This document shows, piece by piece, positions 12,769 through 64,000 of a stretch of 64,000 bases of DNA. Source of the DNA: Amphiscolops sp. MND2022 (Eukaryota); contig OZ076409.1 of NCBI GenBank assembly GCA_964187785.1, positions 10,294,001-10,358,000 of the forward strand, read 5' to 3'. Under the pieces are notes generated by a model. That model was not told where the DNA came from. It searched no databases and was given only the letters and a program-made list of their open reading frames with translations. Both the position numbers and the translations under genes were made by a program. Each line of letters starts with the position of its first letter. Within the stretch, counting starts at the first letter, position 1.

Positions 12769-12769
12769 A

Positions 12770-25951: not shown

Positions 25952-26676
25952 TGTAACGGCATCCTGTGATCAACGACGATTTTCGAAAGTTTCAAGATTT
26001 GCTGAAAAATTCAGGGATGACGTGGCACTCGAACATGGTTTTTATTCGAATTACCTGCCCAGAGAAGCATTGAAAGCTGGAAGAGCAGACCCCGCGAAGC
26101 GGAGAGAACCGAAAAAGCGTAAGATGGACCTGTGAAACGGTCCGAGAGCCTAGCCTATGCGCTAAACTTCGAAAAAACCCACGGTGACAAGATGAAAACG
26201 TGTTGTGCCAGACAACCCATATGTTGAGATCATTGCCATTCCCGGACCCATGGATGTGATCAGCCCAAGAACCGCCGGTGCTATGCCACCTAGACTCAAC
26301 TGCTCGCCAAACACTGGATTTAACTCTTTTATGAGGCTGTTTTAATGATTTGTTTGATTAATTTGTTATTCGAGAGCTTTTGATGCTATTTACGATTCTG
26401 GACGATTCAATTGAGTTCTATGCAACTAGCCCCGTTTTTATAGGCTGTTTAGACGGTGGTTGTGAAGAGAAAAAGCATAAAGCCCGTTATTCTCAGCAGT
26501 TAAAGACTGGAACAGGTCAGAGAGCATCCCTTAGGACGGTTGCCCCTGCTCGGGACCGGCTACCCACAGGAGGACAAAGTGAGCTGGTGCTATGGTGGTT
26601 TGTCCCGGACCATATCCATAGTGTCAGTTCCTCTACTCCAATGTTTCGTCCCAAACGCTTAGCGCTTGCCGATACA
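25952..26676 (+). repeat. 5' LTR (725 bp)
   Basis: Termini TGTAACGGCA..TGCCGATACA (10-bp inverted repeat, one mismatch). Matches 44146-44850 with about 14 differences counted by eye. Confidence 0.92.
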
Positions 26677-26691
26677 TGGAACTTCATTTTT

Positions 26692-26708
26692 TGGCGACCA
26701 CAGAGGGA
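26692..26708 (+). promoter_or_regulatory. Primer binding site, tRNA-Arg-like
   Basis: TGGCGACCACAGAGGGA versus the tRNA-Arg-type PBS TGGCGACCACGAAGGGA (2 mismatches). Confidence 0.7.
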
Positions 26709-29475
26709 TCGTCTATGGAAAGCTTTCCTGCATGGTTATTAAAATTTCTGACCCTCTGGTGTTTAGCGCCAAGACCGTTTCGACTCTGTGGGAGAAGCCA
26801 GAGTTTTCCTTTACTTTAACGTTTATGCGTATTCCTAGCAGCTGGAACGAAAAAAGCCCAGAAAAACCCGAGAAAGATGCGTTTTCAGGTGTGAAAATAG
26901 CATTTTTCAGGTTGAAAAACCCGTAAATGCATGTTGTGTGATGTCATGTTGTTAGCCCATCAACGGGTACATGTTTTGCAGGTTATGGCTACCGTAGCAC
27001 GTGGCTACGGGTGGTTAACCGGTTTATCTAGCCTTTTTCAGCTTTTTGAGCTATGCAAGACAGGTACCGACGGAGGAAAATCCATACTCCACCCGAGCGA
27101 CGGGGAGGTGAAATTGAGTGCTATGGTTCGCCGTAACCCCTTTCTCGTGGAGACGTCCGTTATAGGTGAGATTTGGTGGACAGCTAGTACAACTCCTGAC
27201 GAAGCTAACTGGTCTCCCGCAAGTCTCTAACTGGTCTGGATGTGGAGAAATTGCGTGGCGAAGGTACACGCCCTTGGACCAGATGTGTCGTTCAGATGGG
27301 TCATGGTCCCTGAAAATTTTAAAATTGCGTCTTTTTTCATAGGGAATCATTGGTACAGAACAATCACACTTTTTGACGATGTAACGACACCCTATGGAAC
27401 GCTTTTGAGCAAAGAAAACAGAGTTTTTCCAAAAAACAGCGAAAATTCGTGTTTTTGAGTGTTTTCTTTGGTTGGAGCACGAGTGCTCCGTAAGTCCAAC
27501 GTAGCTCTGCCAGAATGATGGCAAAAGCTGCCTCAAAGCCTGAGGGAGCAGAAAAAACAACGGGCAAGCGTTCCCGTTGCCCCTTTCAGGTGAAAAAGTT
27601 GGAATTTCCAGTGAAAAGGTGCGAAAAGTGAGAAAAAGGGTAAAGAACACCCTAAAAACACCACAATGACTAGGTGTAGAAGCCTGGGGTACCGCCATAA
27701 AGTGGTTTCTCGAGCGAGTCACAACCCTGGGGTACCGGAAATAACTTTCAGTAACTGTTTGGCTGGTATAGAAGCAGCAAGAAAGTGAAAATCTTGCAAT
27801 ATTGTCCGTCTTTGGGGAAGTTGGACATAGCGTGAAAAATTCATTGAACTCAAACCTTAATTATTTCCGCGAGCCTAAGCGCTCTCATTTTCTGTTTGTA
27901 CAATAAAAACAACGCATTGTGGTGAAAACCGCGTGCAAAAATTCCTTTTCAGTGTCGAGAAAAGTTGAAAAACCTTGACTTTTAGTTAGTTTCAGGAAAG
28001 TCTGAGTACACAGTTAAAACCCCCAGGGCACTCCGTCTTTTTGAGCCTATGCGCCCTCATTTCCTGTTTGTCTATAAAAAATAACGTGTAGTGGTGAAAA
28101 CCGCATGTAAAAACTCCCATTCAGTGCTGAGAAAAGTGGAAAAACGCACTAAATTTGGCCGAACTCCCACAAAATCGGACTGTCCAATTGTTAGGGTCGG
28201 GTCAATAATTCCCGAACCCTAGGTAAAAACCGGTGGCATTTTCGTAACCACTGCCAAAATAAATGCTAGTGCAGAAATTTTGGTGGCCCTAGCGCTAACC
28301 AAAGTCGAGAAAAATCCTCCGACGTTTTGACCTCAGACAGCACCGACATAACCAAAAAAAGCCAAAACTGTAGGACCGACAGCGTCTTATACCTAACGGG
28401 CACGGCCAATTGAAGGGCTTGTGACAGTGCTGTGATTAGTGGGGCAACACGTTGACCCTACTTTGCTTGCCGTAACATTTCTAGTGTCGACCCTCTTAGC
28501 CGATTTGTGAGAATAGTGTCAAAAAGAGGACCGCTTTCTCTAAGAGCGTGTCGGTACTCAGCCGAAGTCCCAAATAAGCCAAGGCGTTTCAATTGGACTA
28601 TCAAACCAGCATAGTGACTGCCCACTGGCAACGCGTACCAAGTTTTGTGTCGATTAGTACAATAGTGATCGAGAAATAGACGGAAACGTACTGTACAAAA
28701 ACGGGTAGAAAAAGGCAGTTTTTTCAAATTTTTTTTCGAAAGACCCGGATGCCTTAGTCGGAGAGTGAGAACAAATTGACGCTCACTGACGTAACTGGTA
28801 CCAGTTGGCACACCGCTAGCGGAAAAACCAGACCGCTGACAATTGCCAGTGTCTAGAAGTTGTGTGATAAGAGTGCATTTTGACCCCTATTGGTATACAA
28901 GAGTACCGCACGTCTGTACCCAGGGGAAAGTGTGCACAAGTCAAGGAACCCAAATCGGCGTTTACCATCGTGTACCTACATGTGTGTACAATCCCCTGGC
29001 CAAATTTGAGCCAGATCCAACTGCTGAGTGACGAATACGAGCCACTTGTGTTTTTTTGCGTAATCTGAGAAAATAGCGAAAGTGTTGTAAACGTTCCGCA
29101 CTGGTCTCCACACACACCTAATGTAAATCCAGGCTCTCTTTCGGAGTTTGTGGGTAAATACCTACTGCGTGTGCAAATTTGAGCTTGATACTACCGTTGG
29201 AAGTGTTTTCGACCTTCCCGAAACGTGCTAAGGTCGAAAATATCTTAAGTCCTCACCGGAACGACTGGAGGTCGCATTTCCCCTGGGAACCCCTGAGGGC
29301 AGATTGCGGGAACCGTAAGGATCTCCCGAGTTCCCGGAACTCCTGTTACGGAAGGTGACCCTTGCAGGGGTGTTGCGGACACGACTTCGCGTGACCACAT
29401 AGCCTATAGGTTGTCGGATTGGACGTCATCGGTACGTTGATTCAAATCACTGCGCGGTCGTCCGATTGATACATC

Positions 29476-32400
29476 ATGTTCTGGACCGGTGTAGCGGCCA
29501 TTGTCAAGCTGCTCACGCGCGGGATGCCGAGAACTAGCGAGTCCAGCACCAGCAATGCAGTAGACACCGATGATGCGCAAGAAACGAGGTCGATCCAACG
29601 AGAGGACTCTAGCACTACTGGCGAACTGAGCCTAACGGCATGGTCCTCTGTGGATTCCTTAGTAACCGGTTCTTCCTTTTCAGAAGCAATGAGTGATTGT
29701 GTAACTGCCGATCAGCAGTGACGAGAGGAGCAGAATGCCATGACTCTCAATCGTGGGGATTCGTCCGTATCCAATGAGCTTATCCGAACGGGACAGTGGA
29801 TCCAAGACAATCGGGGTGAATTGGTATCGCCTCAAACCGCGAGGTTCTGGCCCAACTCAAATCAAACGACAGCGCAGGTGACGCCTACGCGTGATGGGTG
29901 CTTTAGGGCACCCCGAGACGATGATAGCACAGCCAGTGTCGACACTGCGGCGGTCTTGGAGAATATGACCTACGTTGGTGGCATGAACTATGCTAAATAC
30001 CGCCTCGAGGCAAGCCGAGCCAAAAGCGCTGGCAAACAGAAGAAGACACGCCCTCCCACATTGTGTGTGCAAGAAGAATTGGCCGTGACAGTGCCTCTTG
30101 TTGTCGCGATGGCACCACGTCGAGCACCTCTTCGCGACGTTCCTCGGCGTACAGAGCCGTTGAGGAGGCGGCAGCAGCAAGGACCGCGATGCTCAAGGCG
30201 GAAGCTGAAGCCCAGCGGGCCTTGACACGTTTAGCCGACACCCGCGCTGAGTGCAATGAACAACACCAAGCTATCACTGCGGAACTGGAGGCTATGCAGA
30301 CCTCGGTAAAGGAAAGCTTGAGGCCTGCCACCCAACAGACAACAGTGCAAGCAGCCAAGGTCGACGCCTTGGGGTATCGTCTGGAAGAGATGAAAGACAT
30401 GCTCATCCAACGCGAACTGCGCATGGAAGTCCAGATGGTGGAGCTTAACAACCAGATGCATACCCTGAGCGCTGCGTCCCGCACAGCGGCACCTGCAGAT
30501 AAGCAACCCAAGGCCGCCGAACCCATCGCATCCACCAGCAAGACAGTGCCTATGCGCACTCCTAATCAGCCGATCACGTTGAAGATGAGCCCCAAGTCTG
30601 AACCCAGAGTATCCAAACCGCCACCGACAGGCAAGAAGACCAACAAAGTGCTTGTGTGCGCACCCAACCCACTTAGTAGCGTGTCGCTACCGCCGGCACC
30701 AACATTTACTCGCACCCAAAATCGAGCAGTAGATCCCATGACGACTACCTCATCAACCGTCGATCTAACTGACACCAATGCAATAGCTGGCTCACGCGAT
30801 AGCAGCGCCGAAGACGAGGTCTACACCACTGCCAGAAGCGGAACCGCAGGTATCACCTCAATGTTCCTCACTGCGAGTGAGGGAGACCCCACTGGTGACC
30901 CTTGCGCCAGTAGCACTCGTAAGAGGGACGACGTAAATGGTGAACTGTCTATGCAAGCCACCAGGGAAAGTCGAGACAATTCTCCCGCCCCTAGTGAGAA
31001 AGGAGAAGTGGTCTCCCAAGAGCAGTAACTGTTCACTGCGGCAATTTCCAAAGCCATGTCCAAAAAGTTAGCCCCATCGCTGGCCGGGCGTGACCCGACG
31101 CAGGCCAGGCCCAGTGTCTACCGAGGTTCAAAGGAGGGTTCCATTGATGATCCTAGTTATACGTCGCTACCTCCAACGCACTCAGGCCAAAGCCACCCCC
31201 GATGACAAAGCATGGAGAATCATTGGGCACCTAGAAGGTGAAGCCAGAAACTACATCATCAACAAGGCCGAGTCTGAAAGAGACACCCCGGGAAAGGTCT
31301 TCGACTTGTTAGCTAGTCGATTCGGAACGGGAGGTAATCGCATGCAAGTGCGTCAGGCCTTCGCAACGCGACAGCAATCCGACAGGGAAGACTGGATGCA
31401 GTATTTAGATGCATTGGATGGGCTGCGAAGCCAAGGCTTCCCTGGTGAGTCCGTCACAACTAAACGTTATGAAATCTTGCAGCGCTTTATCGAAAACGTT
31501 CGTGACCCAGCCTTGCAGAGGGACTTCTCCATTATCTATGCGTCCGAATCCACGGTCACCGAGCCTCCCACTGTTGAATCATTGCGATTTACAACACGGC
31601 AACTGCAACGTACTCGACAAAGGTCGGCGCCTTATAACCCTCGATACGCCATGAGGTCAAGGCCTCATCCTTTCGCACCACTACCCCCCAACAAGACGTT
31701 GCTACCTCAAGGGGTGATGCCTCCCCCACCTGCGAGCAATGCCCCGCTAAACCAAGCAGCAGCACAACCTGCCGTGCGTTTACCCTTGGGTGCTTGCTTT
31801 AATTGTGGCCAAACTGGACACTCTGCTCGAGACTGCCCCAATCGCGACGAAGCTCGTAAACCACCGGCTGCCCCCGAGCCTGAAGGCGTGAAAGTCACTG
31901 CCGAAGATGTGGCTGATGGTATTCTGGAAGGCTGTCCCGGAATTCGTCAATGCAGCAACTGTGGAATTTTCGATCATGCAGATATGCAATGCGGTGAGCA
32001 CTCTAACTCTCCGAAACCAAGTGACGAATTCGCCTACAACCGATGGGCCGAGGTCGAGTCCGGTGGCGTTGCTGCGCACACAGTACCCCTAGAGGATGAT
32101 CGCGTATTAATGCTACATCCGGCGGAACCGCCAACATTCTACACCCCGCTAACAACTACTTGCGGTGCCAAGCAAGTCCAAACCTGCTGAGAGCCTACCA
32201 CGTTCGACCCACAAGGACGGACGTTGATCTCTATTCACCTGATGTTAGCCGCCGAACAACTGCGGAGGCCAACGTTAACCCTGGCGAAGCTCTGGGTTGA
32301 ACTATCCCTCCTCTATAGACGAGTTGAGTTGCCCCGTCCCAAAGAGTGGTACGCCCCTGGAGATTCTGAAACCCTGACGACGTATTCCCCAGTGCCAATC

Positions 32401-35400
32401 TGTGCCACCATGGACGGTGTGGACGTAAAGTTTGAAGCCTGTGTGGTGGTGGATGTGTTCCCACCTGGCATATGTCTGGGTCCCCAAGAACTGAAATGCT
32501 ACAATATCAACCACCAGGAATCCACTGGTGAGGCGCGTATAGACGAACGTGCGTCACTTGTTGTTTCTTTCGTAGTGCCCCATGCGGCACCTATCCCACT
32601 ACGTGGACTGGTGGACACCGGTTCAGGCGTATCGATATTGACATTCTCCGCCTTCAGTTGAGTGGCTGCTCGGACCGGCACTGTCCTAAAGCCCTATCAA
32701 ATCGACTTGTACGCTGCTAACGGAAAAACAATAAAGACCTTTGGACTTGCCGAGCAGATTCGTTTTCAATTAGGAGGGTACGAACTTGAAACCAACTTTG
32801 TCGTGGTGGACGATGCAATGGGTGTGGAGGACTTTCTGCTAGGCCGGAACTTCCTCCGTTCCTATCAGGTCCTGGTAGATCTCACGTCCATGAAGATTGT
32901 TGTGCGAGCGCCCGTGAAGCCCGTTTGGCATCATGCACACGCCCAGGAAGGTGATACTTCGTTAGCCACCCCGGTTGCCTTGGACAGCAATCTAGTCCTA
33001 CAGCCTTTCGAGCGCACAGTGGTTAAAGCCAAGCTCATCACTGACACGCTTGAACCATTGATCTTTCAAAGTGTAGCCTTGAACGCAGCCATTGCTGACG
33101 CATCGTTGCACAATGTTGTGTTTTTAGAGGACATCGTCGCCACTGTCAGCGAGTCAGGCTTGGTGTTCGTCAACCTGATGAATCTAACAAGTAACCCTCA
33201 ACGAGTGCGGAAGGGAAATCGACTTGGCCATGTAGTACCTGTCTCCTTGGTCTACCAGGCCATCCCCCAGCAAACGCCAGACAACCCCGAAACTGAGGTC
33301 AATAACGACCATCTCTCGTTTGCAAATAGAGTTTATGAGCAAATGAACTAAAGTACTGATTGTCAATTAACCTCTTCGTCCGAATTTGAATTTTTGACTT
33401 CAACTGAGCCAACCGAAGCAGGTCTCTCGGATCGTGAGATACGCAAGCGGACGGACCCGGAGCTCATGGCTCCCATACCGGGACCTGAGTCACAGCTTAA
33501 GGATTTCCAGGACCTCTGGAGCCCAGCGGCTTGTACAGCGCTTGAGAACATTCTTACAGAGTTTGATGATCTGTTCATGAACCACAAAGCTGACATTGGT
33601 CGATGTACCATAGCTAAGCATCCAGTGGAGGTGGAACTAGGCGCCATACCTCTCCGCGAGGGTGCAAGGCGCATGTCTCCTGAAAAAGCCAAACGGGCTA
33701 ATGAGGAAGTGCGCAACTTGCTTGTATTGGGAATGATCCAACCTTCCCTGTCCCCTTGGGCAAGCGGAATTGTGTTGGTGAAGAAAAAGAACGGCGAGTT
33801 ACACTTCTGCTGTGACTTCCGCCCCCTGAATGAGGTCACTGTAAAGGATGCGTATCCATTGCCTCGCATCGATGAAAGCCTAGCTAGGCTGGGCAAAGCT
33901 AAAATCTATACTAGCATAGATCTAACTTGGGCATTTTGGCAAATTCCGGTTCGGAAAGATGACTGCCAAAAAACCGCCTCTGCCTGTGAGTTAGGATTGT
34001 TCCAGTGGAGACGCATGCCCTTTGGCATGTGCAATGCCTCTGCCACCTTCCAAAGAGCAATAACACGAGCACTACGCAACATTGTGAATCGTGAAGGTAG
34101 CATGGTTATGGCCTACATAGATGATATAGTCATCGCCACGGAAACCGTGGAAGACCACATGATACGTCTCCGTGAGGTGTTCAATTGCTTGCGCGAGGCT
34201 GGCTTCAAGATGCGAGTTGCTAAGTGCGATTTCATGAAGTCCGAAATCAAGTACCTCGGTCGTGTAGTGTCCGCGGAAGGGATAAAGCCCGACCCCAAGG
34301 CCGTTGCAAAGCTCCGCGACTGGGAAGTTCCGCGTAACAAGACAGAAATGCAACGCTTCCTAGGCTTTGCCAATTATTACCGCGAATTCATTCCCTGGCA
34401 TGCCAAACTGGTGGCCCCCTTGCATGCCATCACTGGACTCAACGCTACCTTTGCTTGGGGATCCGAACAACAGCTTGCCTTCAATGAAATAAAAAATGCG
34501 CTCATCGATGCCACCGCGCTGGCGCAACCGGATTCCGAAGGCGAATTTGTACTGGATACCGATGCTAGTGCTGTTGCCATTTCTGGCATCCTCCACCAGT
34601 GGCAAGGCCCACCTGGAGAGCGACGTTTACGTCCAATACTCTATGATAGCAAGAAGCTCACCGCGACGCAAGCGAAATACGGAGCGCCTAAACTGGAAAT
34701 GTACGCTGCTTATCACTTCATTGTGAAGAATCACAGCTACCTTTGCCCGCGCAAGTTCACGTTGAGAGTGGACAATCAGGCCCTCTCGTGGCTCAAAACC
34801 CCGAACGCAACATCGCAATGCCGATGGATTGTCCAAACGAACAAATGATTACCCATGGAGGGAACAACAATTCGAGAGGCTGCCCCCAGTAGCAGAGCGC
34901 TGGAATTTCCTATCTCAAGAGGAATACGACCAGCTGCCCACTGCACCCTGGTTCGATCTACAAGGCCGGATTATCCCGAACCATCCTGAGCTACCTGAGC
35001 ATCTCGAAAACCTGCAGCCCACACCTCCTGATATTGTCCAACGCGTGATCCGCCGCGCACAACGTAACCGACAACGAAACCAACGGCAGAAAGCACTGGA
35101 AGCACCCTTGCCGCAACCGCCACCCCCAGTTCTTCATGCTCACGAAGACTTCTATCCCGACTATCCAGAGGACTGGATTGATGTGACTGAAGAAGCTCAT
35201 CATGATTATCTGCTGCCCACGCACATTACCAACGTACCCTCGCATACCACCTACGACCTGGCAAACACTGATGGAATGACCATGCAAAATGTCCCAGGTC
35301 ACATCAGGCAAGCCGCACTGGCTGTTCACAGTGTGGGTACCGAGCTGCACGAGCATACCCACACGGTTCATGGCATCAAGGACCTACTCCTTGCACAGAA

Positions 35401-38400
35401 TCGAGACGTGCATGTTCTTTTACTCAAAAAACTGGTGAATGGGAAAAACAACGATCAAGATATATTTCCCGAGGACGTACGTGCATTTGCCCGGAACTAT
35501 TTCAAGCAAAAGAAGGAGCTACTTTTCCTAAATTCCAACGGCGTGCTCTGTGTGAAATACCCCACTTCATGAACGCCCTTGCATGATTGTGATGCCTCAG
35601 TTATATCAACATTAAATTCTCTTCCGTGCCCTCGATGCTATGGGTCACCAAGGCATCGGCAAAGTCGTGGCACGAATACAGGAACGCCACACCTGGCCTG
35701 GCATTCGCCGCACTGTGGGCGAGTACGTGAGCCAGTGTCTCACGTGCTCGTATGTTCGAGACAAACCTGGGGACGTTCGGTTCCATCTCAAGAATATTCA
35801 ATGCGGATACTTCAATGAATTGGTCCAGTACGATCATATGAAGCTTTGCCCCACCGATGATGGAAACACGGGAATCTTAGTCATTATTGATCACTTGTCT
35901 AAATTTGCCGAGGCAGTCCCTTGTAGTCATGACGAGTATGACGCAATTACCACCTCGCGATTGCTCTTGCAAAAATGGTTTGCCCGTCATAGCACCCCTA
36001 CCCGGATGCAATCGGACAATGCTCCGAATTTAACAGCGGAAGTCTCTAATGAATTTATGAAAGCCTCACAGGTCACGAAGGTGACCTCCACTGCTGGTCA
36101 CCCCCGCACACAAGGTCTAGTAGAACGCCAGAATCGCACGCTACTCACTTTGTTGCGTGTTTTCTGCTCGCGACGAATGCGCGATTGGGATCGTCACTTG
36201 GACGAGGTCCTACGTGCGTATAACTCCACACGTCACGCAACCACAGGGTTCTCACCTTACATGTTCACCAGGGGCACAGAAAAAGCGATACCCCTTACGT
36301 ACCTGTATCCCGAGTTTGCCTCACGGTCCTTCCCCACACATGACGCTTACGTGGATCATGTACTAGCACGTCTCCAAGAGATCCACGACCTGGTGCGTAG
36401 AAACACGCACCAAGCTCAGCTGCGGCAAAAATTAAAGTACGACCGCGCAATACAGGCCAAAGCCTAAAAACCTGGCGACTTGGTCTGGGTCTTTTGTCGA
36501 TACGTTCCTCAAAAAGGTTCACCGAAACTGATGCGAGCTTGGCGTGGCCCGCATCGCATTTTTCATACTCTGCAGGATGGGCGTGTATACATCCTGGACA
36601 CAGGACAAAAGGTCCACTTTGAACGTTTGAAACCTCATAATAGTGGCCCCGTGGAATTCGCCGCCACCCCATTAGATACCGGTGACATCGCCGTGGTAAT
36701 GGATCCTGAGCCCGAGCGCTCCATAGAACCTATTGATGATGATTGCTCCAAGCCCTCCTATCACTCTGAACAATTACTTTAAGAGGCCTCGGATGTGTCG
36801 CTACCCTCTAGGCAACGCCATTGGATGGACACTAGATTGCGCACAAAGCTGCGCGCGGGAAGATCCCGGCAGCATTATCAACAGTTCGATTATTCCACGT
36901 CTGAGACCGACGATGAAACGTCGGACGCGATGCTCCTCATTCCTACCCATTCCCTACAACTGGTCCAGACACAACCTGCAGACATCGAAGCCCCCGCCGT
37001 GCCTGCTATTTCGTCAGACACATCTATGTTCGACTGCCTTCCGCAGTTATTCTCCGATCATGAGCATAGGCGCTCACCCTCACCACAGTTATCACCGTCA
37101 GATGATCCACCGGAGCTATCCCCATCGGGTACCTCTGCTCCGCTGCTGACGCATCCTTCCTTTACCGACTACCTCAGTAATTACCCACTTTGGCCCAATC
37201 ACGCCAAAGATACCAGCGCCCCCACTTCTCGTCCGCCTACACCCCAGCGGACCAAGCCCCACCACCATTACCCAAACCACCCACCGCTCCTTCTGTTAAA
37301 AGGGGGAAAGGGAGACCTCGGAAAAAGACAAGGGCGACAAGGGCACCCCGTTCACGTAAACCTTCGGCAAAGGCAGCGTCCGAGGTCCACGCGCCAATTT
37401 CAGACACGCAAACGGGATCCCAACATAGATACCAATTGAGGCATAAACGGCAGCCCAGATACAAATGTGGCACCTGTGGCTTGCGCGACTGCGCATGCGT
37501 GCTAGCTGTGCACGAGAACCGGGAGGTTCCCATTGGAACCCGGGGAGTTCCCCCGGAGGGACGACACAATGCTGAACTGGTTCATCGTATCGTGGTGCGA
37601 GCGGAAAAGACCTTCATTGGATTAGAGCGAACCGAGAATTATTCAGCAGAAACCATCTTGCAGCGAATGGGCGTACCGGGCGTTGCGAAGGCACCATGTC
37701 CTCAATTTAAGGAATGGACAAATGACGGCAAAGGCCTAGAATTCACGCTGGCAATCGTGGTACCCCCAGTGCCCCCTAACGTCGTGTTTGGTCCGTTCAA
37801 TTTTGAGCGGGAGCCAGTGCAAATGGCCAGATGCACCACTGCTGATCTACGGTTGGACCGATACGGAGGCGTGTATAGTCCAGCCCCGCACTGGTGGTTG
37901 TTGGTGACTGCACCGCGTGTAGTTGCGCTAGTGGAACCACGGCATTTGCTGCTTTGCCTGGAACGTTTGAGGACTTCCACAACGGAACACCTACTCTTGT
38001 GCTTCCACCTTATTGACTGGTATCGTGGGAAAGTAAAATTTGGCTGGTGGTTGGAGCTGATCATAACGTGCTTCACCAACTACCACCGCATTCGTCTATT
38101 GGACGAATGGATCCACACTTTTGAGGAACCCCTGCTAGTGAGAGCAGTATTGAACACGCTGGACACATGGGTCCGAGCAAGTGTGGATAACCAAGCGTTG
38201 CCGCGCTCGGTGTGGCAGGATTTAGCTGCAATACAGGGTCGCAGCGGGTCGCATCGGGTCGCACCCCACGCGTATGCTTACCCCCTGATAATGGACCGGG
38301 TCGGGAAATAGTGTATCCCGGCCGTCTACGCCCGAACATGGTGGAATACATTTCTTATGACACCACTGACTTTTTGCAAGTCGAAAGGCATGTAGCCCTG

Positions 38401-44127: not shown

Positions 44128-44145
44128 AGGAGCCCGGGGAGTGGA
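44128..44145 (+). promoter_or_regulatory. Polypurine-tract region
   Basis: aggagcccggggagtgga immediately before TGTAAC of the 3' LTR; conserved in the sister element. Confidence 0.75.
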
Positions 44146-53400: not shown

Positions 53401-54787
53401 GTTCCCAAGCCTGCTCCGACATGTCTGCGTCACGGGGGCGGAGCAAACGTGTGACTTGCGCCGGTATCGTGGTCCGGTTGATCTCCTTTTGCTCCGTTTC
53501 TGTTGGAGGGGTCCTTTTCTTGATAGCGCATTGACTGGGGTGGAGATGCTCAGCCGCCATCCAAATGCGTTTGCTATCATTGGTGACTACTGAGCCGGAT
53601 ACGTCGTCAGATGGAGGGAGGAAAGCTGGAGGATGGGCTTCCTCCACCGTCTCAGGTATCTCCAGGGACATGTCTATTGGATTGGTGCCCGAGGGCACAG
53701 AGCTCACTTCCGAGCCTGCGTCCGGATCTCCATACTGTTCGATCGCGTCTGCTAAAGACATTTGAGGAGCGCTTCGGCCTAGATGACCTACCCGGTACGG
53801 GGGCATAGGGATAACCACACTCTTCAGCTGGGACCGAGGTACATCAGCGCGCTTGTCGGGAGGGGGACGACTAGTTGGGCTCTCGGTTACCGAGCCAGCT
53901 GGGGTAACTGAGACAGTTTCTTCAGTCAGCTGCTTTCTCCCCGCTTCTTCTCGTGTGCCAGAGGCAGCGCTTGCGCTGTTACTCGGTCCAGCGACAATTT
54001 CCATATCCATAGATGCCGTTTCGACTAGGGGAGCAGGAGGGTCACAGCCCGCGGGCTGAGCAGCAGCTTGCAGATACGTGGGTAATCCAGGGATTCTCTG
54101 CTCCACGGCACGGACGAAATCGGTGGAGTTGGGATAGTTCGCCACCGCTTGCAAAGCCACAATTACGGCCTGTTCGCTGGTACTCCTTCCCATCAGCTCT
54201 GGGTTGGGTATGGGTGGCAACCGGGACCCCGAGGGCTCCCGATCAGAGACTGGTGCATTAGTAGTGGTTTGCAGTACCATATGTGGCGCTCGATATGAGG
54301 TCCCAAAGGCAGGCGAACCGGAATAAGTTGGCGTCATTGGTACTGGATTTGGCGCTGGTGGGGGCAGTGCGACGATCTGAGGAGGAGGCATTGTTGCTAC
54401 GCTGGCAGGCACCATACACAGTGAGGCTTCTTGCTCGAATCTCGTGCCTTGGCTGGGTCCGAGCATTGTGGTGGACCGTTCATCCAGGAACTGGTGCGTC
54501 AGATCGTGGCCATCCCACGCATTGTTTTGGCAGGTTAGGGTGCGACGGTAACCGGCTACTTCCGTCACCAGAGACACGGATACGCCAGGCAGCGTCTGCA
54601 TTGTGTCTAGTTGGGTAAGTAGGGCGGCCACGCCCGGTACCGCTAACGGTGAGAGGCCGTTCCTCAATCTCTCTTCAACGTATTGGACTTGGTTAGTCCT
54701 CTGCGCTCGCGCAGGCAATTCTTGGGTCCTATTGGCATGAGGTCCCGTCGTGGAAATAGGTACCGTGTTGTTGGGGTAATAAGCCAT
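50479..54787 (-). pseudogene. ORF3 of the sister element (~1,435 aa, one frameshift near 52340)
   Basis: The 840-aa and 578-aa ORFs align end to end with the + element ORF3 (MAY.., G.DLTH.FLD.RS, SEQAVI.ALQAVANYP, SPTSRPPPDKR, PNRYWKEP, SGEHTAELTPNAAL). Confidence 0.88.
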
Positions 54788-55064
54788 AATATCATAGGTC
54801 TAAAAAGGATTACCGTTAGGCTTACTCAGTGCATTGTGGGGAGAGCTTAAGGCTCATCACTCAGCAGCAAAGATGGTTCCATAGGGGAACCGCAACAAGT
54901 TTAAATTGTAGTTCGACTAACTAATTAGAACACAAAGATAGAAGTTATCTAACGCTACGTTACAATGTAATCATTTCATGGGATAGTTTAAGACTTCCTC
55001 CCAGGCATGACGATTATCGGGTGGGTAAATTGAATAAGGGGGCAACAAAAATGTTTTAGGTGGG

Positions 55065-58000
55065 CTACTCCAGCCCTATGTTCAGAATGGACACATACAC
55101 GCGGTTATGCAACACCACGTGAACACCGGTCCTCTCCAGCAAATTCGTTAGGGTATGGTATAAGTTTACCAGTGAGAGGGCGGGTCGCTCTGGATCCAGT
55201 ATAGGTAGGTGGACCCTCGTGGATCCCTTCTCCATCAAACGCTGTATCAAGTGCGTCATACAACGTAGGTAGTCGTCTGCGAGCAGCGGCGCACGCTGGT
55301 TTGCTCTGATTATTAACAAGTGAATACTCTGATTGGGGTTTGGGGGTTTTTGATATCGGGAGGAATGGTGAGAATCTCCCCCACCTTAGGACGTAAGGAG
55401 AACACATTCTCCTTGCCGCATTCTCGTAGCACGTACCGTAGGGCAGCTGAGTTGGTCTCTAGGTCAGCGGGACACGCCAACACTATGTCACCTTTTACTT
55501 GAAGAAAATCAGTCACATCATATGAGAGGTGTTCTGTTGGGGCTGGATGCAGGATTCCCGGGTAGATGATCTCTATCCCCGGCCCATTGTCGGCAGGCAA
55601 GCATACGCGGGGCGTACGCCCCTGGATTGCAGCCAGGTCTTGCCATACCGAGCGTGGCATCGCTCGGTTATCACTGCTCGCCCTAACCCATGTGTCTAGG
55701 GTGCTCAAAACGGCTTTCGGAGGAAGCGGAATCTCGAAAGTATGAGTCCACTCATCCAGCAATCTAATGCGAGGATAATTGGAGAAACAAGTGATGATCA
55801 GCTCCAACCACCACGCAAATTTTACTTTGCCACGATACCAGTCTATGATGTGAAAGCAAAGTATCAAGTCCGCGGTAGTGAGGGTCCTCAGACCTTCCAA
55901 GCAGGACAGCAGGTGCAATGGTTCCACTATTGTCTCCACTCGTGGAGCAGTGACCAGCAACCACCAGTGCGGCGCTGGGCTGTATACTCCGCCCGGATCC
56001 ACGTGAATTCCGTATTTGTCACAGAGAAGATCAGCGGTGATGCATCGGACCATTTGCACAGGCTCCCGCTCGAAGTTGAAGGGGCCAAAAGCAATATTGC
56101 TGGGTACTGGGGGCATCACCGTCGCGAGGGTGAACTCTAACCCTTTTCCATCGCTAGTCCACACCTTGAATCGAGGACATGGGGCCTTCGCTACTCCAGG
56201 TAGTGATAACTTCTCCAGGATAGTATCCACGGGATGGTCTCCGTGTCGTTCCAGGGAGGAAAAAGTCTTTTCAGCTCTCACCGTAAGGCGATGTACTAGA
56301 TTTTCTCCCCGCTCTGGAGGGACTCCCCGGGCTCCAGTGGGAACCCTCCGGTTCTCATTGACGGCTAGCAAGCAAACACAGTCTCGCAGCCCACAGGTCC
56401 CGCACTTATAGCGTGGCTGCCGTCTGCTTCTCAGTTGATATCGGGGGACCTCGGAAGCCTCGGTCGGTATTGCTGTTTCCGACGGCATTGTTGTTGTAGT
56501 TTCTTTCTTCCTCGTTCTTGCCTTCGCTCTGACCAGCCTTTTTCGCGTTTTGGGTGGTCTCCCCCTCCCCCTTTTGAAAGAAGGAGCGGTCCCCGCTCCG
56601 GGCAATGTTGTGGGAAGAGTAGGGACATTGGACTGAGCGTCGTCATCCTCAGTGGCGGATTTTAGAGGAAGGGAAAGCGCGGCCGGCCAAATGGGATAGT
56701 TGTTGAGGAAACTCGTCAGTGATGGATTTGTCAGTAGTGGGGCCGATGTGCCCAGTAAGGAGGGCTGTCTTTCGGGAGAGGATATCCGTGGTGACGGAGA
56801 GCGCGCGCGCTCATGGTCGGAGAATAGTTGAGGCAGATGATGGGCAGGTGATATTGATTGGTCTGAAGGGAGTTGGGGTTCGGGCTCCCTGCGATCGGCA
56901 TCAACGGGATCAGGAGGTACCGGTAGCACGACTTCGGACAACTCGTCGTCAGTGCCCGAAGTTGAGTAGTCGAATTGCTGGTAGTGCATGCGGGAACCTC
57001 CAGCACGTAACTTTGTGCGCAGACGGGTATCCATCCAATGTTGCTTGCGCGAAGGCAAGGATACGTCAGATGCTTCTGAAAGTAGTTGTTCAGTTTTATA
57101 TGAAGGCTGGGACTTATCGTCGTCAACTGCTTCAACAGAACATTCAGGGTCAGGGTCCATGAGTACCACTATTTCGCCGCTGTCCGCTTGCGCGGTGGCG
57201 AGCTCAAGGGGCCCACTATTATGAGGTTTCAGGCGCTCAAAATGAACCTTTTGGCCTGTGTCCAATACGTAGACACGTCCTTCTTGAAAAACTTGCACTA
57301 TTTTGTGCGGGCCACGCCAGGCGCGCATCAATTTTGGAGAGCCTTTTTGCGGCACGTAGCGGCAAAAAACCCAGACGAGCTCTCCCGGCTGGTAAGCTCG
57401 TGCTCGGATAGCACGATCATATCTCAGTTTTTGGCGCAATTGGGCTTGGTGCGTGTTGCGCCGGACCAAGTCGTGAATTTCTTGTTGGCGAGCCAACACA
57501 TGATCCACGTATGCTTCATGCGTATCGAAGGACTTGGCTGCAAATTCAGGGTATAAAAAGGTGAGGGGAATTGCTTTCTCAACACCCCTTGTTAACATAT
57601 AGGGCGAGAAGCCTGTAGTGGCGTGCCTGGTGGAATTATAGGCACCGATCACTTCATCTAAGCACTGGTCCCAGTCGCGCATGCGACGTGAGCAAAAGGT
57701 TAAGAGGGTACGGTTTTGCCGTTCCACCAAGCCTTGAGTTCGTGGATGTCCGGCAGTGGAGGTCACCTTAGTGACGTGAGCTGCCTTTAGAAACTCATTA
57801 GAGACTTCAGCAGTAAGGTTGGGGGCATTGTCTGATTGCATGCGAGTGGGGCAAATGGCGGGCCAACCATTTCTGCAGCAGCAATCGTGAGGTAGTCACT
57901 GCGTCATAGTCATGATGACTACAAGGGACTGCCTCTGCAAATTTAGAGAAATGGTCGATGATGACCAAAATGCCAGTGTTGTTGTTATCAGAGGGGCAGA

Positions 58001-61000
58001 TTTTTAAGTGGTCATATTGGACCAACTCGTTGAAGTAGCCACTCTGAATATTTTTCAACTGGAATCGTACGTCACCAGGCTTGTCACGTACTTGTTGGCA
58101 GGTGAGGCATTGGCCGACGTATCGACCGACACTGCGCCTTATGCCGGGCCAAGTGTGGCGCTCTTGAATTCGAGCTACCACTTTTGAGATACCTTGGTGT
58201 CCCATTGCGTCGTGCGCGCGGAACAGAATCTCGTGCTGGTACAGTTGAGGCATTATGATCATGCACGGACGTTCGTGCAGTGGGCGTTGGGTGGGGGAGT
58301 ACTGCACGCAAAGGACATGATTCTTGTTTATGAACAAGAGATCCTTTTTCTGGCGGAAGTAATTACGTGCGAACACACGCACGTTCTCGGGAAACACGTC
58401 GTTATCTAGGGATTCACACTGCACGAGCTTTTTCAGTGCTAGCACGTGGACATCGCGGTTTTGGGCTAAAACCAAGTCCTTGATCCCATGCACGGTATGT
58501 GTGTGTTCACGGAGCTCGGTGTCGATGTTCTTGAGGGCCATGATCGATTCGCGCACGCCACCAGGTGAGTTCTGTAGCATGGCTTTACTCGTTCCCGTCA
58601 CGGAATAGATGGTGTGCGAGGGGACATTTACTGCATGTGTTGGCAGCAGGTAATCCTCGCTGGCCTCAGTGGTGACATCTATCCAGTCTTCAGGATAGTC
58701 TGGGTAGAAGTCTTCGTGTTTTTGCAGTACGGGTGGAGGCTGAGGCGGTAAAGGCGCGGCTAGCGCCTTTGCCTGTCGTTCTCGCTTGTTCGCTCGTTGC
58801 ACACGGCGAAGCACACGGAGTGCCTGGTCAGGAGCCTTAGGCTCCAAGTTCTGCAGATGCGGTGGTAGGTCAGGATGATTTGGAATGATTCGACCTTGCA
58901 GGTCGAACCATGGGGCTATGGGGAGGTTGTCGAATTCCTCGGCTGAGAGGAAGTTCCAACGCTCTCCAGTAGCTGGCAGCTGCGCAAGCTGCTGTTCTCG
59001 GCATCGATACTCGTTGGTTCGTTTGCTCAAGCCATCAGCATTGCGGTGCTGCGTTCGTGGTCTATGTTCCACGCGAAAGTGATACCTGACCAGTGTCATA
59101 ATCCAACGTCCAATCAATGCTTGGTCCGTGGAGTAGGTTTTCAACCAAGATAGGGCTTGGTTGTCGACTCGCAGAGTGAACTTGCGGGCACAAAGGTAGC
59201 TGTGGTACTTGAGGATGAAGTAGTAGGCAGCAAACATCTCCAGCTTGGGTGCCCCATATTTGGCTTGGGTGGTGGTCAGTTTCTTGCTGCCGTATATGAT
59301 TGGTCGTAGGCGTCGCTCTCCGGGAGCTCCTTGCCATTGGTGTAGGATACCGGAAATGGCAACAGCGCTGGCATCGGTGTCCAGCACAAACTCTCCTTCA
59401 GAATCAGGCTGCGCGAGCGCAGTCGCCTCGATCAATGCTGTCTTGATTTCGTTGAAGGCTTTTTGTTGGTCAGGACCCCATGCGAACGTGGCATTCAGTC
59501 CCGTAACGGCGTGGAGGGGGGCCACCAGCTTGGCATGCCACGGGATGAATTCACGATAATAATTAGCGAATCCCAGGAAGCTTTGCATTTCAGTTTTGTT
59601 GCGGGGGATGTCCCAATCGCGCAGTTTGGCAACAGTTTCGGGTCCGGTTTGACACCTTCTGCTGAGACCACGCGTCCCAGATATTTGATTTCTGGTTTCA
59701 TGAAATCGCATTTGACTACGCGCATCTTGAAGCCAGCTTCGCGGAGGCATTCAAAAACCTCGCGCAAACGCGCCATGTGATCTTCCACAGTCTCAGTTGC
59801 TATAACTATGTCGTCGATGTATGCCATGACCATGCTGCCTTTGCGATTGACTATTTTTTGCAGCGCTCGCGCTACTGCTCGCTGGAAAGTGGCTGATGCA
59901 TTGCACAAGCCAAATGGCATTCTTCGCCATTCAAAGAGTCCCAACTCACAGGCACAGGCTGTTTTGTGGCGGTCCGCCTTTCGCAAGGGAATTTGCCAGA
60001 AAGCCCAGGCAAGGTCTATGCTGGTGTAGATCTTTGCATTGCCCAGTCGCGCCAGGCTTTCATCGATACGGGGCAGGGGATAGGCATCCTTAATGGTTAC
60101 TTCATTCAGCGGTCGGAAGTCACAGCAAAAGCGTAACTCCCCGCTTTTCTTTTTTACCATTACGATACCGCTTGCCCATGGGGACAGTGAAGGTTGTATC
60201 ATCCCTAAGGCCGATAAGCTCCGAACCTCCTGGTTGGCTCGTTCAGCCTTTTCGGGGGACATTCTCCGAGCACCTTCACGGTGCGGTACAGCCTCAGGCT
60301 CTACCTCTATGGTGTGTTTAGCAATGGTACAGCGGCCAATATCCGCCTTGCGTTTCATGAACAGGTCATCAAACTCGTTAAGAATGTTGTCTAAGGACTC
60401 GCAGGCGCTAGCGCCCCAGAGTTTCTTGACTTCTTGCAATTGAGAATCGGGCCCAGGGATCGGGGCCAATAGGTCGGGATCGGTGCGCTTGCGAATCTCG
60501 CGCTCCGAAAGCCCCGCTTGACTTGGATCCGTAGAAGACAAAAACTCAAATTCAGATGAAGAGGTTAACTCAGAAGCAGTAGATAGATTCATTTCACTGT
60601 ACACTTTATAAACAAAATTTGCTCGACTGTCGTCGGCTTCAGTTTTATGGTCAGTTTCCGCAGTAGCATCCAGCTTTTTGGGCACAGCCTGGTATACTAG
60701 AGACACAGGCACTACCGTGCCTAGGTGGGCACCACATCGTACACGCTGCTGGTTGCTGGTGAGGTTTACCAGACTCACATACAGTGTTCCTGTCTCACTG
60801 ACAGTGGCCACGCTGTCCTCTAAAAAGATGGCATTTTGCAATAAGGGATCAGACAACGAGGCGTTAAGCGCCACGGTCTGGAAGATTAATGGTTCAAGCG
60901 CGTTGGTGACAAGTTTGGCCTTTGCCACTGTACGCTCGAAAGGCTGTAGGACTAAGTCACTGTCCAGAGCAATGGGAGTAGTTAGCGAAGCATCACCTAC

Positions 61001-64000
61001 CTGGGTGTGTGCATGATGCCAGACGGGCTTCACTGGTGCTCGCACCACTATCTTCATGGAGGATAGATCTACCAAGACTTGGTAGGAACGGAGGAAGTTT
61101 CGACCCAACAGAAAGTCCTCCACGCCCATTGCGTCATCTACCACGACGAAATTGGTTTCGAGTTCATACCCTCCCAACTGGAAGCGTATCTGCTCAGCCA
61201 GCCCGAAAGTCTTTATTGTCTTCTCATTGGCAGCGTACAAATCAATTTGATAGGGTTTCAGGACCGCTCCGGTCCGTGCAGCTACCCGGTTGAAGGCGGA
61301 GAAGGTTAGTATGGATACTCCAGAACCAGTGTCCACCAGGCCTCGCAGTGGGATAGGTGCCGCATGTGGCACCACAAAGGAGACAACGAGCGACGCACGC
61401 TCATCTATTCGCGCTTCCCCGGTGGGTTCTTGGTGGTTGATATTATAGCATTTCAGCTCTTGAGGTCCCAAGCATAAGCCGGGTGGGAATACATCTACCA
61501 TCACACAGGCCTCGAACTTCACGTCCACGCCGTCCATCGTTGCACAGACTGGTACTGGCGAGTACGTAGTCAGGGTCTCCGACTCTCCGGGGACGTGCCA
61601 CTGTTTTGGGCGGGGCAATTCCATCCGGTTATAGAGGACAGATAGCTCAACCCAGAGTTTTGCCAAAGTTAACGTTGGTCTGCGCACCTGCTCGGCTGCC
61701 AGCATAAGATGAATCGAGATCAACGTCCTCCCTTGTGGATCGAACGTTGTGGGCTCCAAGCACGTCTGAATCTGCTTTGTCCCACATGTAACTATCAGTG
61801 GGGGGTGAAACGCTGGGGGCTCCGCTGGGTGAAGCATTAATACGCGATCATCTTCCAGGGGTACCGTGTGGGCGGCCACACCAGCGGATTCCACTTCAGC
61901 CCAACGATTGTAGGCCAATTCATCATTAGGCCTCGGAGCTTGAGAATGCTCACCACAGGGGACATCCACATGGTCATAGACTCCACAGTGCGCACACTGA
62001 TGAATGCTTGGATAGCTCTCCAACACGCCATCAGTTACGTCTTCAGCAGTGACTTTCACGCCTTCTGGTTCAGGAGCTGCCACTGTTTTGCGAACTTGAT
62101 CGCGGGCGGGACAGTCCCGGGCAAAATGCCCAGCTTGACCGCAATTATAGCGCGCGCCAACGGGTAGGCGTGCCGCAGGCTGCACTGTTGCTTGATTGGG
62201 GGGAGCATTACTCGCAGGTGGGGGAGGCATTACTCCTTGTGGTAACACCATTTTGTTGGGGGGTAGTGGCGCGAAGGGATGAGGTCGAGACCTCATTGCT
62301 AGTCTGGGGTCATAGGGTTGAGGGAATTGGTTAGGTTTTGGACGGTTGCGCTGCAATTGGCGGGTGGTGAAGCGGAGGGATTCCACCGTAGGTGGCTCGG
62401 TGAGGAAGACTTCCGATGCATACACTATGGCCAGCTCCCGCCTCAGCGCTGGGTCTCGTACACCTTCCATGAAGCGCTGGAGGATTTCATATCGCTTGGT
62501 GGTGATTGCCTCTTGTGGGAATCCTTGACTCCGAAGACCCTCTAGAGCGTCTAAATACTGCATCCAGTCTTCTTTCTCTTGTTGAATGCGGCTTTGGAAA
62601 GCTTGTCGCACTTGCATACGGTTTCCTCCAGCGCCAAAGCGGCTGGATAACAATTCGAACACCTTTTCGGGGGTGTCACGTTCGGATTCCGCTTTGTTGA
62701 TAATTTAGTTGCGGGCTTCACCTTCAAGGTGACCGATGATGCTCCAAGCCTGGTCCTCGGCTGAGACCTTGGCTTGTGTTCTCTTCAGGTATCTCTGCAT
62801 AATAAGGATCCACCCATCAATGGATCCTTCTTTGGACCCGCGATATACATTGGGCCTCGCCTGAGCCAAGTCTCTGCCGGCGAGTAAGGGCGCTAACTCT
62901 TTGGAAATCGCCTTTGATATGGCGGCCGTGAATCTCAGCTGCTCGGGGGATATGGCTTCTCCTTCATCAGCCTTGGCCTCCCCTTCGCGTGTCCTGTCAT
63001 GACTACCAAGAGTGGCTTGTATCGACAGGTCAGCGATTTCGTCCTTTTTACGAGTGCTGCTAGCACAGGGAGTGCCCGAGGGCAGTCCATGTTCGGCTGA
63101 CAAGTCTGCGGTCCAGTATAAAGAATCTGGTCCTGACATCGAAATAGGGGCAGTTGCAAACGTTGCTCCCTCGGTTTGAGAGCCTAGGGTTGCTTTGGTG
63201 TTAGATAGGTCGACTTCGACCGAGGAATCTAGATAGATGGTCGACATCGGGTCCACGCCTTGATCTCGAGTGGTACTCTGGGTTGCAGAAGGCATCGATG
63301 ATTCTGCTGAGTCGTGATGTCCCCTCATCTGCACTCGTGCAGGCTTGCGCTCTGCTTCAGGCGTGGCCATCACCAAATTTCCGGCTACTCCTTCATCTTT
63401 CGGGGCGCAGGCACCGCCGGCCTGGAAGTGCTAGGCTTTAGCGCGCTCGGCAGTTCCGACTTCACTACCTGGCTCGGGCACGTCGGCTCCGAGATACGGA
63501 CTGGACCTCCATTCCGCACGCCTCCACTTGTACTGGGCTGCCGCGGGAGCGACCTCTCACGCCTCATGACATCAATGGCATTGAGTACCGTGTGCATCTG
63601 ATTGCTTAAGTCGTTGATCTGCGTTTCCACGCGCAGCTCACGAGACATCAACGTGTCATTCATCTCTCCTATCCGGTGACCCAATGTGTCCACTCGAGCA
63701 TTTTGCACATTCTGCGCGGTGCGCAATTGATCACTGACCTGCAGGCCTTCACGCATCGTCGTCTGCATCACTTTAATGTTCTCTACGATAGCAAGGTGTT
63801 GCTCATTGCATTCAGCACGAGTGCTGGCCAGACCTGCTAGGGCCCGTTGGGTTTCGGCTTGGGCATCCAATAGTGCTGCCTTGTATACTGAGGACCGTTG
63901 CGATGAGGCCAATGAGCCTGTCATACTCCTGACACGGGATGCCTCTTGACGTGGCTCGCCTACCTGTAGTAGAGGTGGTCGTACCTTCTTGTGCTTCCCG
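55065..64000 (-). pseudogene. gag-pol: Gag-Pol of the sister element, with few lesions
   Basis: ORFs of 179, 223, 1055, 647, 842 and 84 aa tile gag, PR, RT, RH, IN and the C-terminal extension. Confidence 0.93.

Follow-up and report, generated by a model that had tools for sequence, protein, structure and literature searches.

The 64,000-nt window analysed here (positions 10,294,001 to 10,358,000 of contig OZ076409.1 in the Amphiscolops sp. MND2022 assembly GCA_964187785.1; coordinates below are those of the window) contains two decayed members, from different subfamilies, of one giant Ty3/gypsy family of retrotransposons with long terminal repeats (LTRs). Five extra parts recur across the subfamilies: a leader of 2.7-3.3 kb, a long gag, a spacer of ~280 aa between RNase H (RH) and integrase (IN), a tail behind IN, and a separate third open reading frame (ORF3). 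The explanation that best accounts for the whole, to which we assign a probability of about 0.7, is a giant Ty3/gypsy family that replicates in the ordinary way and carries these five extras, with a putative macro domain at the end of Pol and an ORF3 protein in the roles proposed below.

Layout and state of the two copies

The copy on the + strand spans 25952-44849, 18.9 kb from LTR to LTR. Its sister lies on the - strand at 48977-64000, and the window edge cuts off its 5' end. The two copies are collinear in tblastx, where 30084-43329 (+) matches 63951-50539 (-) in a single order from gag to the end of ORF3, which confirms the diverged sister of the same layout, 5' end beyond the window, described in an earlier note on this DNA. 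Amino acid identity in these matches is 78-80% in protease (PR) and reverse transcriptase (RT), 88% in RH, 75-94% in IN, 51-81% behind IN and 47-53% in ORF3; nucleotide matches between the copies are restricted to the pol part (72-76%). In both copies the Pfam families follow in the order zf-CCHC, retropepsin-type aspartyl protease, RVT_1, RT_RNaseH_2, Integrase_H2C2 and rve. The G+C content is 49-55% within the giant units versus 33-40% in their surroundings.

Both copies are broken, the + copy by in-frame stops at 32188, 32659, 33349, 40592 and 40859 together with several frameshifts, the - copy by frameshifts near 59640, 57850, 55337 and 52350. An alternative genetic code was considered and rejected: both TGA and TAA occur among the stops of the + copy, which also has frameshifts, and the standard code leaves other copies open. 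The gag-pol features are as follows.

29600-38806 (start approximate), + strand: gag-pol of the + copy, broken, with the parts in the order gag, CCHC, PR, RT, RH, 280-aa spacer, IN, linker, Cys cluster, domain Y, macro (Pfam, stops and frames, tblastx)
33778-34830, + strand: RT and RH of the + copy (RVT_1 E 8e-34, RT_RNaseH_2 E 1e-22)
35628-36233, + strand: integrase zinc finger and core of the + copy (Integrase_H2C2 E 1e-10, rve E 6e-7)
55065-64000, - strand: gag-pol of the - copy, frameshifted, 5' end beyond the window (Pfam, frames, tblastx)

The spacer between RH and IN (~280 aa; 34831-35627 on the + strand, 58251-59081 on the - strand) is 66% identical between the copies and has no Pfam match. 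Judged from its sequence, it is a further conserved insertion in Pol.

Termini, priming and integration

The direct repeat formed by 25952-26656 and 44146-44850 is 98.0% identical over 705 nt, in line with the 18.9-kb LTR-to-LTR element claimed earlier. Since the 21 bases after 26656 resemble the end of the sister LTR, the full 5' LTR is 25952-26676, and the + copy has a truncated 3' LTR. LTR length across the family is 725-748 bp.

25952-26676, + strand: 5' LTR of the + copy, 725 bp, TGTAAC...GATACA (full length from other genomic copies and the sister LTR end)
44146-44849, + strand: 3' LTR of the + copy, minus its last ~21 bp (LTR comparison)
48977-49720, - strand: 3' LTR of the - copy, 744 bp, TGTAAC...GTTACA, starting with TGTAACGGCA at 49720 and preceded by GGGGAGTGA at 49729-49721
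44136-44145, + strand: polypurine tract (PPT) GGGGAGTGGA adjoining the 3' LTR (+ copy sequence)
26692-26710, + strand: primer binding site (PBS), 19 nt, 15 nt behind the LTR (complement of a host tRNA-Arg-like 3' end)
26677 to about 29600-29997, + strand: long non-coding leader of the + copy, with no wholly contained + strand ORF of at least 120 aa
25930-25951 and 44850-44871, + strand: 22-bp host flank, an exact repeat (100% over 22 nt)

Seven LTR pairs were read outside the window, five of the + copy's subfamily and two of the sister's. All seven have the ends TGTAAC...GTTACA, a purine tract adjoining the 3' LTR (GGGGAGTGGA in the five, GGGGAGTGA in sister copies A and C) and a target duplication of 3 bp (GAA, ATA, CTG, TTG, GTT, AGT and TAA). 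Within the window, the PPT region 44107-44160 matches 49758-49704 at 91%. The PBS, kept in 7/7 other copies read, is complementary, without a mismatch, to the final 16 encoded nucleotides plus CCA of tRNA-like genes in a host tRNA-Arg array; the acceptor stem of these genes pairs properly, and a T-run terminator follows. A tRNA pattern with a guessed T-arm prefix had no match in the host genome (1.067 Gb, 1,929 contigs), and the five loci found with a second pattern held no tRNA; a tRNA cluster on another contig did hold matching units. This array (C9:57538900-57548000) contains 21 predicted genes in 9.1 kb, 17 of them for tRNA-Arg (TCG or CCG) and four for tRNA-SeC(TCA), as well as extra tRNA-like units not called by ARAGORN, and it is units of this array that bear the PBS-matching 3' end. 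LTR retrotransposons usually duplicate 4-6 bp of their target and have a PBS that adjoins the LTR. The present family departs from this in both respects, with a shorter, 3-bp duplication and a PBS 15 nt from the LTR.

By its direct LTRs with short inverted TG...CA ends, PBS, PPT, PR-RT-RH-IN order and short target duplication, the element is a Ty3/gypsy LTR retrotransposon. The assignment to Metaviridae was made from Pfam families typical of Ty3/gypsy (RT_RNaseH_2, Integrase_H2C2), the domain order and the ends.

The junction of the + copy itself speaks against a canonical integration: behind the truncated 3' LTR, 22 bp of the 5' flank stand a second time. Target duplications of 22 bp are not a trait of the family, as all seven other pairs have 3 bp. 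The whole + insertion, with both junctions, recurs ~161 kb upstream on the same contig (C1:10159037 and C1:10177873; 97-99% identity; 97% over 621 nt). The identical aberrant junctions there indicate that the aberrant insertion was duplicated later along with its flanks; the second occurrence is a segmental duplication or an assembly duplicate.

The leader, put at ~2.8 kb in the earlier note, measures about 2.7-3.3 kb across copies (2.7 kb in one copy of the - subfamily). Between subfamilies it is 70-73% identical at the nucleotide level over 26482-27488 and 27878-28760 (compared with copy A), and blastn still matches the leader between subfamilies whose ORF3 it no longer matches. Its tblastx identity is similar in all three frames, with no frame favoured. 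Conservation of this kind, without a preferred frame, suggests a conserved RNA or regulatory function.

Copies elsewhere in the genome

The family is abundant and young, and has been active recently. The 726-nt LTR query (25952-26677) gave 2,047 first-look candidates, with 41 places reported at 92-100% identity, nearly all of which cover query positions 1-725/726. With the intact ORF3 protein P0002 (1,435 aa) as the query there were 5,928 first-look candidates; all 33 places scored were full-length at 96-100% identity, and 17 of them were stop-free over 1,439 codons. The Pol-tail query P0280, from a third subfamily, gave 5,428 first-look candidates, and 30 of 83 scored places lay within open frames of 3,111-3,220 aa. 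A copy number in the thousands thus refers to first-look candidates, detailed scoring covering the 33 ORF3 and 83 Pol-tail places. Elements range from 17.9 to 18.9 kb with LTR pairs 98.0-99.6% alike: one copy of the - subfamily measures 18,882 bp, its 733-bp LTRs being 98.9% alike and its leader 2.7 kb long; a second has 17,883 bp and LTRs 99.6% alike.

Three - subfamily copies that were fetched have the same order of parts as the window copies, and the proteins P0385 and P0374 show the same Pfam order PR-RT-RH-IN. In P0385 (2,998 aa, from the same group as P0280) PR lies at residues 861-982, RT at 1263-1423, RH at 1489-1621 and IN at 1877-2089, followed by ~900 residues. A programmed -1 frameshift between gag and pol was considered and dropped: the frame change is a 1-nt deletion private to one fetched copy, absent from the other two and from the - copy of the window, and gag-pol is therefore one frame. 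In all copies examined the extra blocks lie between the two LTRs, and at least three subfamilies have them. With respect to the proteins postulated earlier, a gag-pol of ~3,100 aa and an ORF3 of ~1,420 aa, the sizes are seen in other copies in the genome (3,111-3,220 aa and 1,439 codons), and neither is intact in the window; the proposed extension of ~700 aa past the integrase core holds in the unbroken copies.

Selection on the extra blocks

In the comparison of the two window copies, synonymous sites prove saturated (proportion of synonymous differences, pS, 0.66-0.90), and the proportion of nonsynonymous differences (pN) is 0.05-0.15 in RT, RH and IN, 0.12-0.29 in the folded tail and 0.32-0.33 in the ORF3 core. 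The earlier observation that amino acids are kept while third codon positions differ is thus reproduced (pN 0.05-0.33 overall). The ratio of nonsynonymous to synonymous rates (dN/dS) was estimated with NG86 on four copies of the - subfamily, 3-8% apart at synonymous sites, one against three, at pS 0.02-0.11; the pairwise values share one reference copy, and those for small regions rest on few changes.

gag: dN/dS 0.20-0.29
PR-RT-RH-spacer-IN: 0.12-0.35
linker behind IN: 0.67-1.01
Cys cluster and part of domain Y: 0-0.53 (78-185 codons, 3-10 changes)
end of domain Y and macro domain: 0.15-0.56 (202 codons, 8-26 changes)
ORF3 N-terminal part: 0.14-0.26
ORF3 core: 0.13-0.21
whole ORF3 (1,438-1,439 codons): 0.14-0.24

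The low dN/dS values, together with the many open frames, indicate that selection keeps ORF3 and the folded domains of the tail as it does the core enzymes. Purifying selection on both as parts of the element is therefore supported, and with it the earlier claim of selected cargo, with the exception of the linker behind IN, the sole region that is near neutral.

These values bear on the reading that the extra blocks are passengers, that is, nested insertions or captured host genes with no role in the element. Giant elements often grow through nested insertions, and the near-neutral linker (0.67-1.01) would fit such an origin. Against it stand the same block order in both window copies and the three fetched copies, a tail that is in frame with IN across open frames of 3,111-3,220 aa, dN/dS of 0.13-0.24 in ORF3 and 0.15-0.56 in the macro region, and the retention of the blocks between subfamilies that are only 38-53% identical. 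The passenger reading is largely refuted, and we consider it exceedingly improbable.

A predicted macro domain at the end of Pol

Behind IN, the ~900 aa of the Pol tail comprise, in order, a disordered linker, a Cys cluster, a domain that we call Y, and a terminal domain that the structure model identifies as a macro domain.

38347-38806, + strand: macro domain of the + copy, with an in-frame TAA at 38713 (translation aligned to the folded homologue)
55068-55513, - strand: macro domain of the - copy, with one frameshift (fold of the 86%-identical P0230)
55526-56383, - strand: Cys cluster C-x2-C-x4-C-x-C and alpha/beta domain Y (invariant or near-invariant columns in 58 sequences)
56384-57200, - strand: disordered linker behind IN with a weak AT-hook-like stretch (pLDDT below 50)

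The model was built for P0230, an unbroken 544-aa homologue, with 57 relatives down to 35% identity, and has a mean predicted local distance difference test score (pLDDT) of 63.8. It contains two confident domains. The macro domain occupies residues 390-535 (pLDDT 65-90), and Foldseek returned 175 PDB matches for it at E<=1e-3, the best being TARG1/C6orf130 (4j5q; E 3e-8, TMt 0.82, root-mean-square deviation (rmsd) 2.6, 147 columns). VIA-align likewise placed TARG1 at Z 15.9 (rmsd 2.7 over 141 residues), followed by Z 15.5 for DarG of M. tuberculosis, 14.4, 13.5 for DarTG and 13.4 for Poa1p, with 37 chains at Z>=8; viral macro domains scored Z ~9-10.7, those of rubella and chikungunya viruses 10.0-10.7. 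By its modelled fold, then, the C-terminal domain of Pol is a macro domain closest to TARG1, DarG and Poa1p. Every protein long enough to show both has it downstream of IN. It may bind or hydrolyse ADP-ribose, an activity that we regard as putative.

Domain Y is an alpha/beta domain of ~210 residues (model pLDDT 72-95). No fold was assigned to it; its alignments, made solely within tandem-macro chains at rmsd >15, were not counted. The Cys cluster is invariant and is preceded by basic residues. In the linker, AT_hook matches fall below the cut-off in 16 of 58 members, and Pfam finds no chromodomain in any member examined.

The identification of the macro domain has to be weighed against several observations. 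The protein that was folded is P0230, 86% identical to the - copy, and not a broken window copy; the Pfam Macro profile matches none of the 58 members; searches of PDB sequences with the Pol tail, as a single protein and as a profile, gave no match; and the glycine-rich ADP-ribose loops of TARG1 are not evident in the Pol-tail sequence. Searches of the tail against Pfam at E up to 10 found no useful family match, and those in the ESM Atlas reached scores of 0.81-0.83 only, with one row in which Pfam Macro is found on 15% of members, a lead at most.

The absence of evident loops would also fit a macro domain that reads ADP-ribose and does not erase it, and that forms, with the AT-hook-like linker and the Cys cluster, a module tethering integrase to ADP-ribosylated chromatin. 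Its position at the extreme C-terminus of IN, the place of targeting modules in other Ty3/gypsy lineages, argues in the same direction, as do the weak AT-hook in 16/58 members and the invariant Cys cluster. The closest folds, however, are the hydrolases TARG1, DarG and Poa1p, and no site preference is obvious from the 3-bp duplications in the seven cases read. A reader of this kind seems to us rather unlikely.

ORF3, a predicted non-envelope protein

39077-43009, + strand: ORF3 of the + copy, one frame with stops at 40592 and 40859 (ORF list, translation)
50479-54787, - strand: ORF3 of the - copy, with a frameshift near 52350 (96-97% identical to the intact 1,435-aa P0002)
52643-53215, - strand: SGNH-hydrolase-like alpha/beta domain of ORF3, P0002 aa ~525-715 (AlphaFold2 (AF2) pLDDT 74-94, VIA Z 6-7.8)

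ORF3 encodes 1,426-1,451 aa across subfamilies. The protein starts with ~385 disordered, proline- and serine-rich residues, has no signal peptide at its N-terminus, and contains hydrophobic stretches near aa 913 and 1027 (score 1.8-2.3 in a 19-residue Kyte-Doolittle window). Among 1.84 billion representatives searched, 489 relatives reached E<=1e-3, with identities as low as 27%; every one of them is a fragment. One relative of 1,187 aa, which comes from other, short contigs, shares no more than 27-30% identity with anything in this genome, from which it follows that the protein family reaches beyond this genome.

The AF2 model of the ORF3 core (945 residues, 67 sequences, mean pLDDT 58.7) is confident at residues 160-370 and 425-590. 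In a full VIA scan, core residues ~140-330 aligned with SGNH/GDSL hydrolases at Z 6.0-7.7 and rmsd 3.0-4.6 over 136-193 residues, and 38 of the 50 listed matches are esterases, GDSL lipases or O-acetyltransferases by title. The top match (Z 7.8) is a crocagin biosynthetic protein, not SGNH-type by title, and the catalytically dead OSK domain of Oskar scored Z 6.1. Besides the SGNH-like domain the model has a helical domain. Foldseek found no match for ORF3 at E<=1e-3 in PDB or BFVD; searches against Pfam (E up to 10) and PDB sequences (single protein and profile) gave nothing useful, and the ESM Atlas held no usable match for the N-terminal part.

The following points limit the identification as an SGNH hydrolase. 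Half of the core model has pLDDT below 50. The match itself is middling, because Z values below 8 are common for unrelated folds, and Z 7-8 for models without a clear relative; hence we call ORF3 SGNH-like, not SGNH. On the alignment, inspected by eye, neither the GDS block (TMPLS follows strand 1 instead) nor DxxH is visible, and the sole candidate histidine varies between subfamilies, being a tyrosine in the P0002 subfamily. The Pfam GDSL families match none of the 67 ORF3 members, and with the canonical blocks (I GDS, II G, III GxND, V DxxH) unmatched as well we did not class ORF3 as an SGNH hydrolase.

The position of ORF3 downstream of pol is the usual place of env, and it could be a divergent envelope gene, which would make the family errantivirus-like, an endogenous retrovirus-like agent able to leave the cell. 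The hydrophobic stretches near aa 913 and 1027 are compatible with this, and an envelope fold could hide in the poorly modelled part of the protein (aa 900-1300), about half of the core model being of low confidence. However, the protein begins with the disordered segment and lacks a signal peptide, matches no Pfam family, and has no fusion glycoprotein among its Foldseek PDB, viral or VIA matches; its confident part resembles an SGNH-type alpha/beta domain. We therefore consider an envelope very unlikely, and the earlier statement that ORF3 does not look like env stands as far as these tests go. ORF3 is probably an accessory, non-envelope protein, and possibly a membrane-associated or RNA-binding one.

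Proposed roles of the extra parts

The element would follow an ordinary cycle, which its termini and frames bear out: tRNA-primed and LTR-bounded, with gag-pol as one frame of ~3,100-3,200 aa and insertion by integrase with a 3-bp duplication. ORF3 would be made from a predicted subgenomic message, and its product would not be a fusion glycoprotein.

As the last domain of the polyprotein, the macro domain presumably travels with integrase. It would ride on IN into the particle and the pre-integration complex, and would bind or remove ADP-ribose there. TARG1 takes mono-ADP-ribose off proteins and DarG off DNA. By analogy, the macro domain might lift a PARP-type restriction imposed on proteins or cDNA of the element, in the manner of RNA virus macro domains, which counter the antiviral ADP-ribosylation carried out by PARPs (PMC7232374). 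Alternatively, it might tether integration to ADP-ribosylated chromatin, as chromodomains tether chromoviruses. Removal of ADP-ribose from element proteins or cDNA is in our view the most likely role, a tentative choice that we put somewhat below an even chance. Tethering is the main alternative and appreciably less probable; the remainder goes to another or a lost function. The host genome has 32 matches to the PARP catalytic domain above the Pfam cut-off. Several of these belong to unusually long single-exon PARP-domain genes, with open frames that run without interruption for 1,650-2,096 aa.

A bolder version of the preferred explanation can be formulated, in which the family would be a distinct, active or very recently active Metaviridae lineage with a TARG1/DarG-like eraser on its integrase and with env replaced by an SGNH-like, membrane- or RNA-associated protein, and would owe its success to neutralising an ADP-ribosylation defence. 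We hold this to be unlikely as a whole. If true, the family would have the first such counter-defence of any retrotransposon and would point to PARP-type control of transposons in invertebrates; the success of the family, thousands of copies and perhaps several percent of the 1.07-Gb genome, would then depend on neutralising that defence.

Relation to known elements

Macro domains are counter-defence tools of RNA viruses, and the DarG antitoxin cleans ADP-ribose off DNA. A selected macro domain fused to an integrase, as predicted here, suggests that ADP-ribosylation acts on reverse-transcribing elements, either as a restriction or as a targeting cue, and the family offers a natural system in which effects of ADP-ribosylation on retroelements can be tested.

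The macro domains of positive-strand RNA viruses (alphavirus nsP3, coronavirus nsp3, rubella p150), cellular TARG1 and bacterial DarG share the modelled fold, and like the viral ones the present domain is part of the replicase-type polyprotein of a genetic parasite. It differs from all of these in having no sequence-level similarity to them and in being fused, as modelled, to a retroelement integrase. Chromoviruses are Ty3/gypsy elements with a chromodomain at the C-terminus of IN. The present family resembles them in bearing an extra chromatin- or modification-related module behind integrase, but the module is a predicted macro domain behind a ~700-aa tail, with no chromodomain by Pfam. Epsilon-like endogenous retroviruses (ERVs) of fish have additional ORFs for macro-domain proteins (PMC4977317, citing Basta et al. 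2009), and so are also reverse-transcribing elements with a macro domain. As presented there they are Retroviridae with the domain in a separate ORF, whereas here it would be the C-terminal domain of a Metaviridae-type Pol/integrase polyprotein.

Among giant elements, a close parallel is Burro/GYPSM1 of planarians, with >30 kb, thousands of copies and an ORF1 of 4,873 aa (Grohme et al. 2018 and Jurka 2007, in PMC6431247). According to the account in PMC6431247, its extras, namely MATH, BIR, BCL2-like and ankyrin domains, an env-like region and a dUTPase, lie between gag and PR or RT, and the Burro-type layout keeps accessory domains inside one ORF1 of about 4,900-5,100 aa. Burro and the present family have in common a Ty3/gypsy backbone, a size far above 10 kb, thousands of copies and many accessory domains in one polyprotein. 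They differ in that the extras of the present family stand behind RH and IN and in a separate ORF3, not between gag and PR/RT, and Burro as described in that account has no reported macro or SGNH-like domain. Ogre, mentioned in the same source, is another giant gypsy element of differing layout. With a genome of 18.9 kb, a polyprotein of 3,100 aa and a third gene of 1,440 aa, the present family bears on the supposed size limits of retroelements.

For ORF3, the precedent is provided by the Vesta/Juno LTR elements of bdelloid rotifers, whose ORF3 is described as a GDSL esterase/lipase that keeps the invariant S, G, N and H and is detectable by HHpred (PMC5408684). The likeness lies in a non-env third ORF placed downstream of pol and, if the middling fold match of the present ORF3 holds, in the SGNH/GDSL class of its fold. 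In comparison with the rotifer protein as described, the present ORF3 lacks visible canonical blocks and a profile match, is far longer, and has added helical and hydrophobic parts. If the modelled, SGNH-like fold is correct, it would be the second case, after rotifers, of an esterase-fold protein in the usual place of env.

In the literature searched, to which subscription journals, Repbase Reports and Dfam did not belong, neither an LTR retrotransposon with a macro domain in its Pol nor the present combination was reported. Within that scope the earlier suggestion of an undescribed layout survives for the combination, and not for the single parts, which have precedents in the rotifer ORF3, the macro ORFs of fish ERVs and the giant gypsy elements.

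Other elements and genes in the window

Positions 1-10000 (+ strand) hold another gypsy-like element, decayed and of a different kind, whose coding strand is strikingly poor in G (GC skew -0.39 to -0.50) and which has an RT_RNaseH_2 match at 2608-3168 (E 4e-23). A weak match to a Monjiviricetes fusion glycoprotein at 8845-9672 (E 2e-4, below the Pfam cut-off) in the same element could represent a mononegavirus-type env. A third kind of LTR element is represented at 10357-12791 (- strand), where a Bel/Pao-type gag (DUF1759, E 5e-39) precedes an aspartyl protease. Between the giant copies, at 45333-46322 (+ strand), an open frame encodes PAN and C-type lectin domains. Nothing else in the window points to a host gene, and it was from this frame that the host was taken to be an animal.

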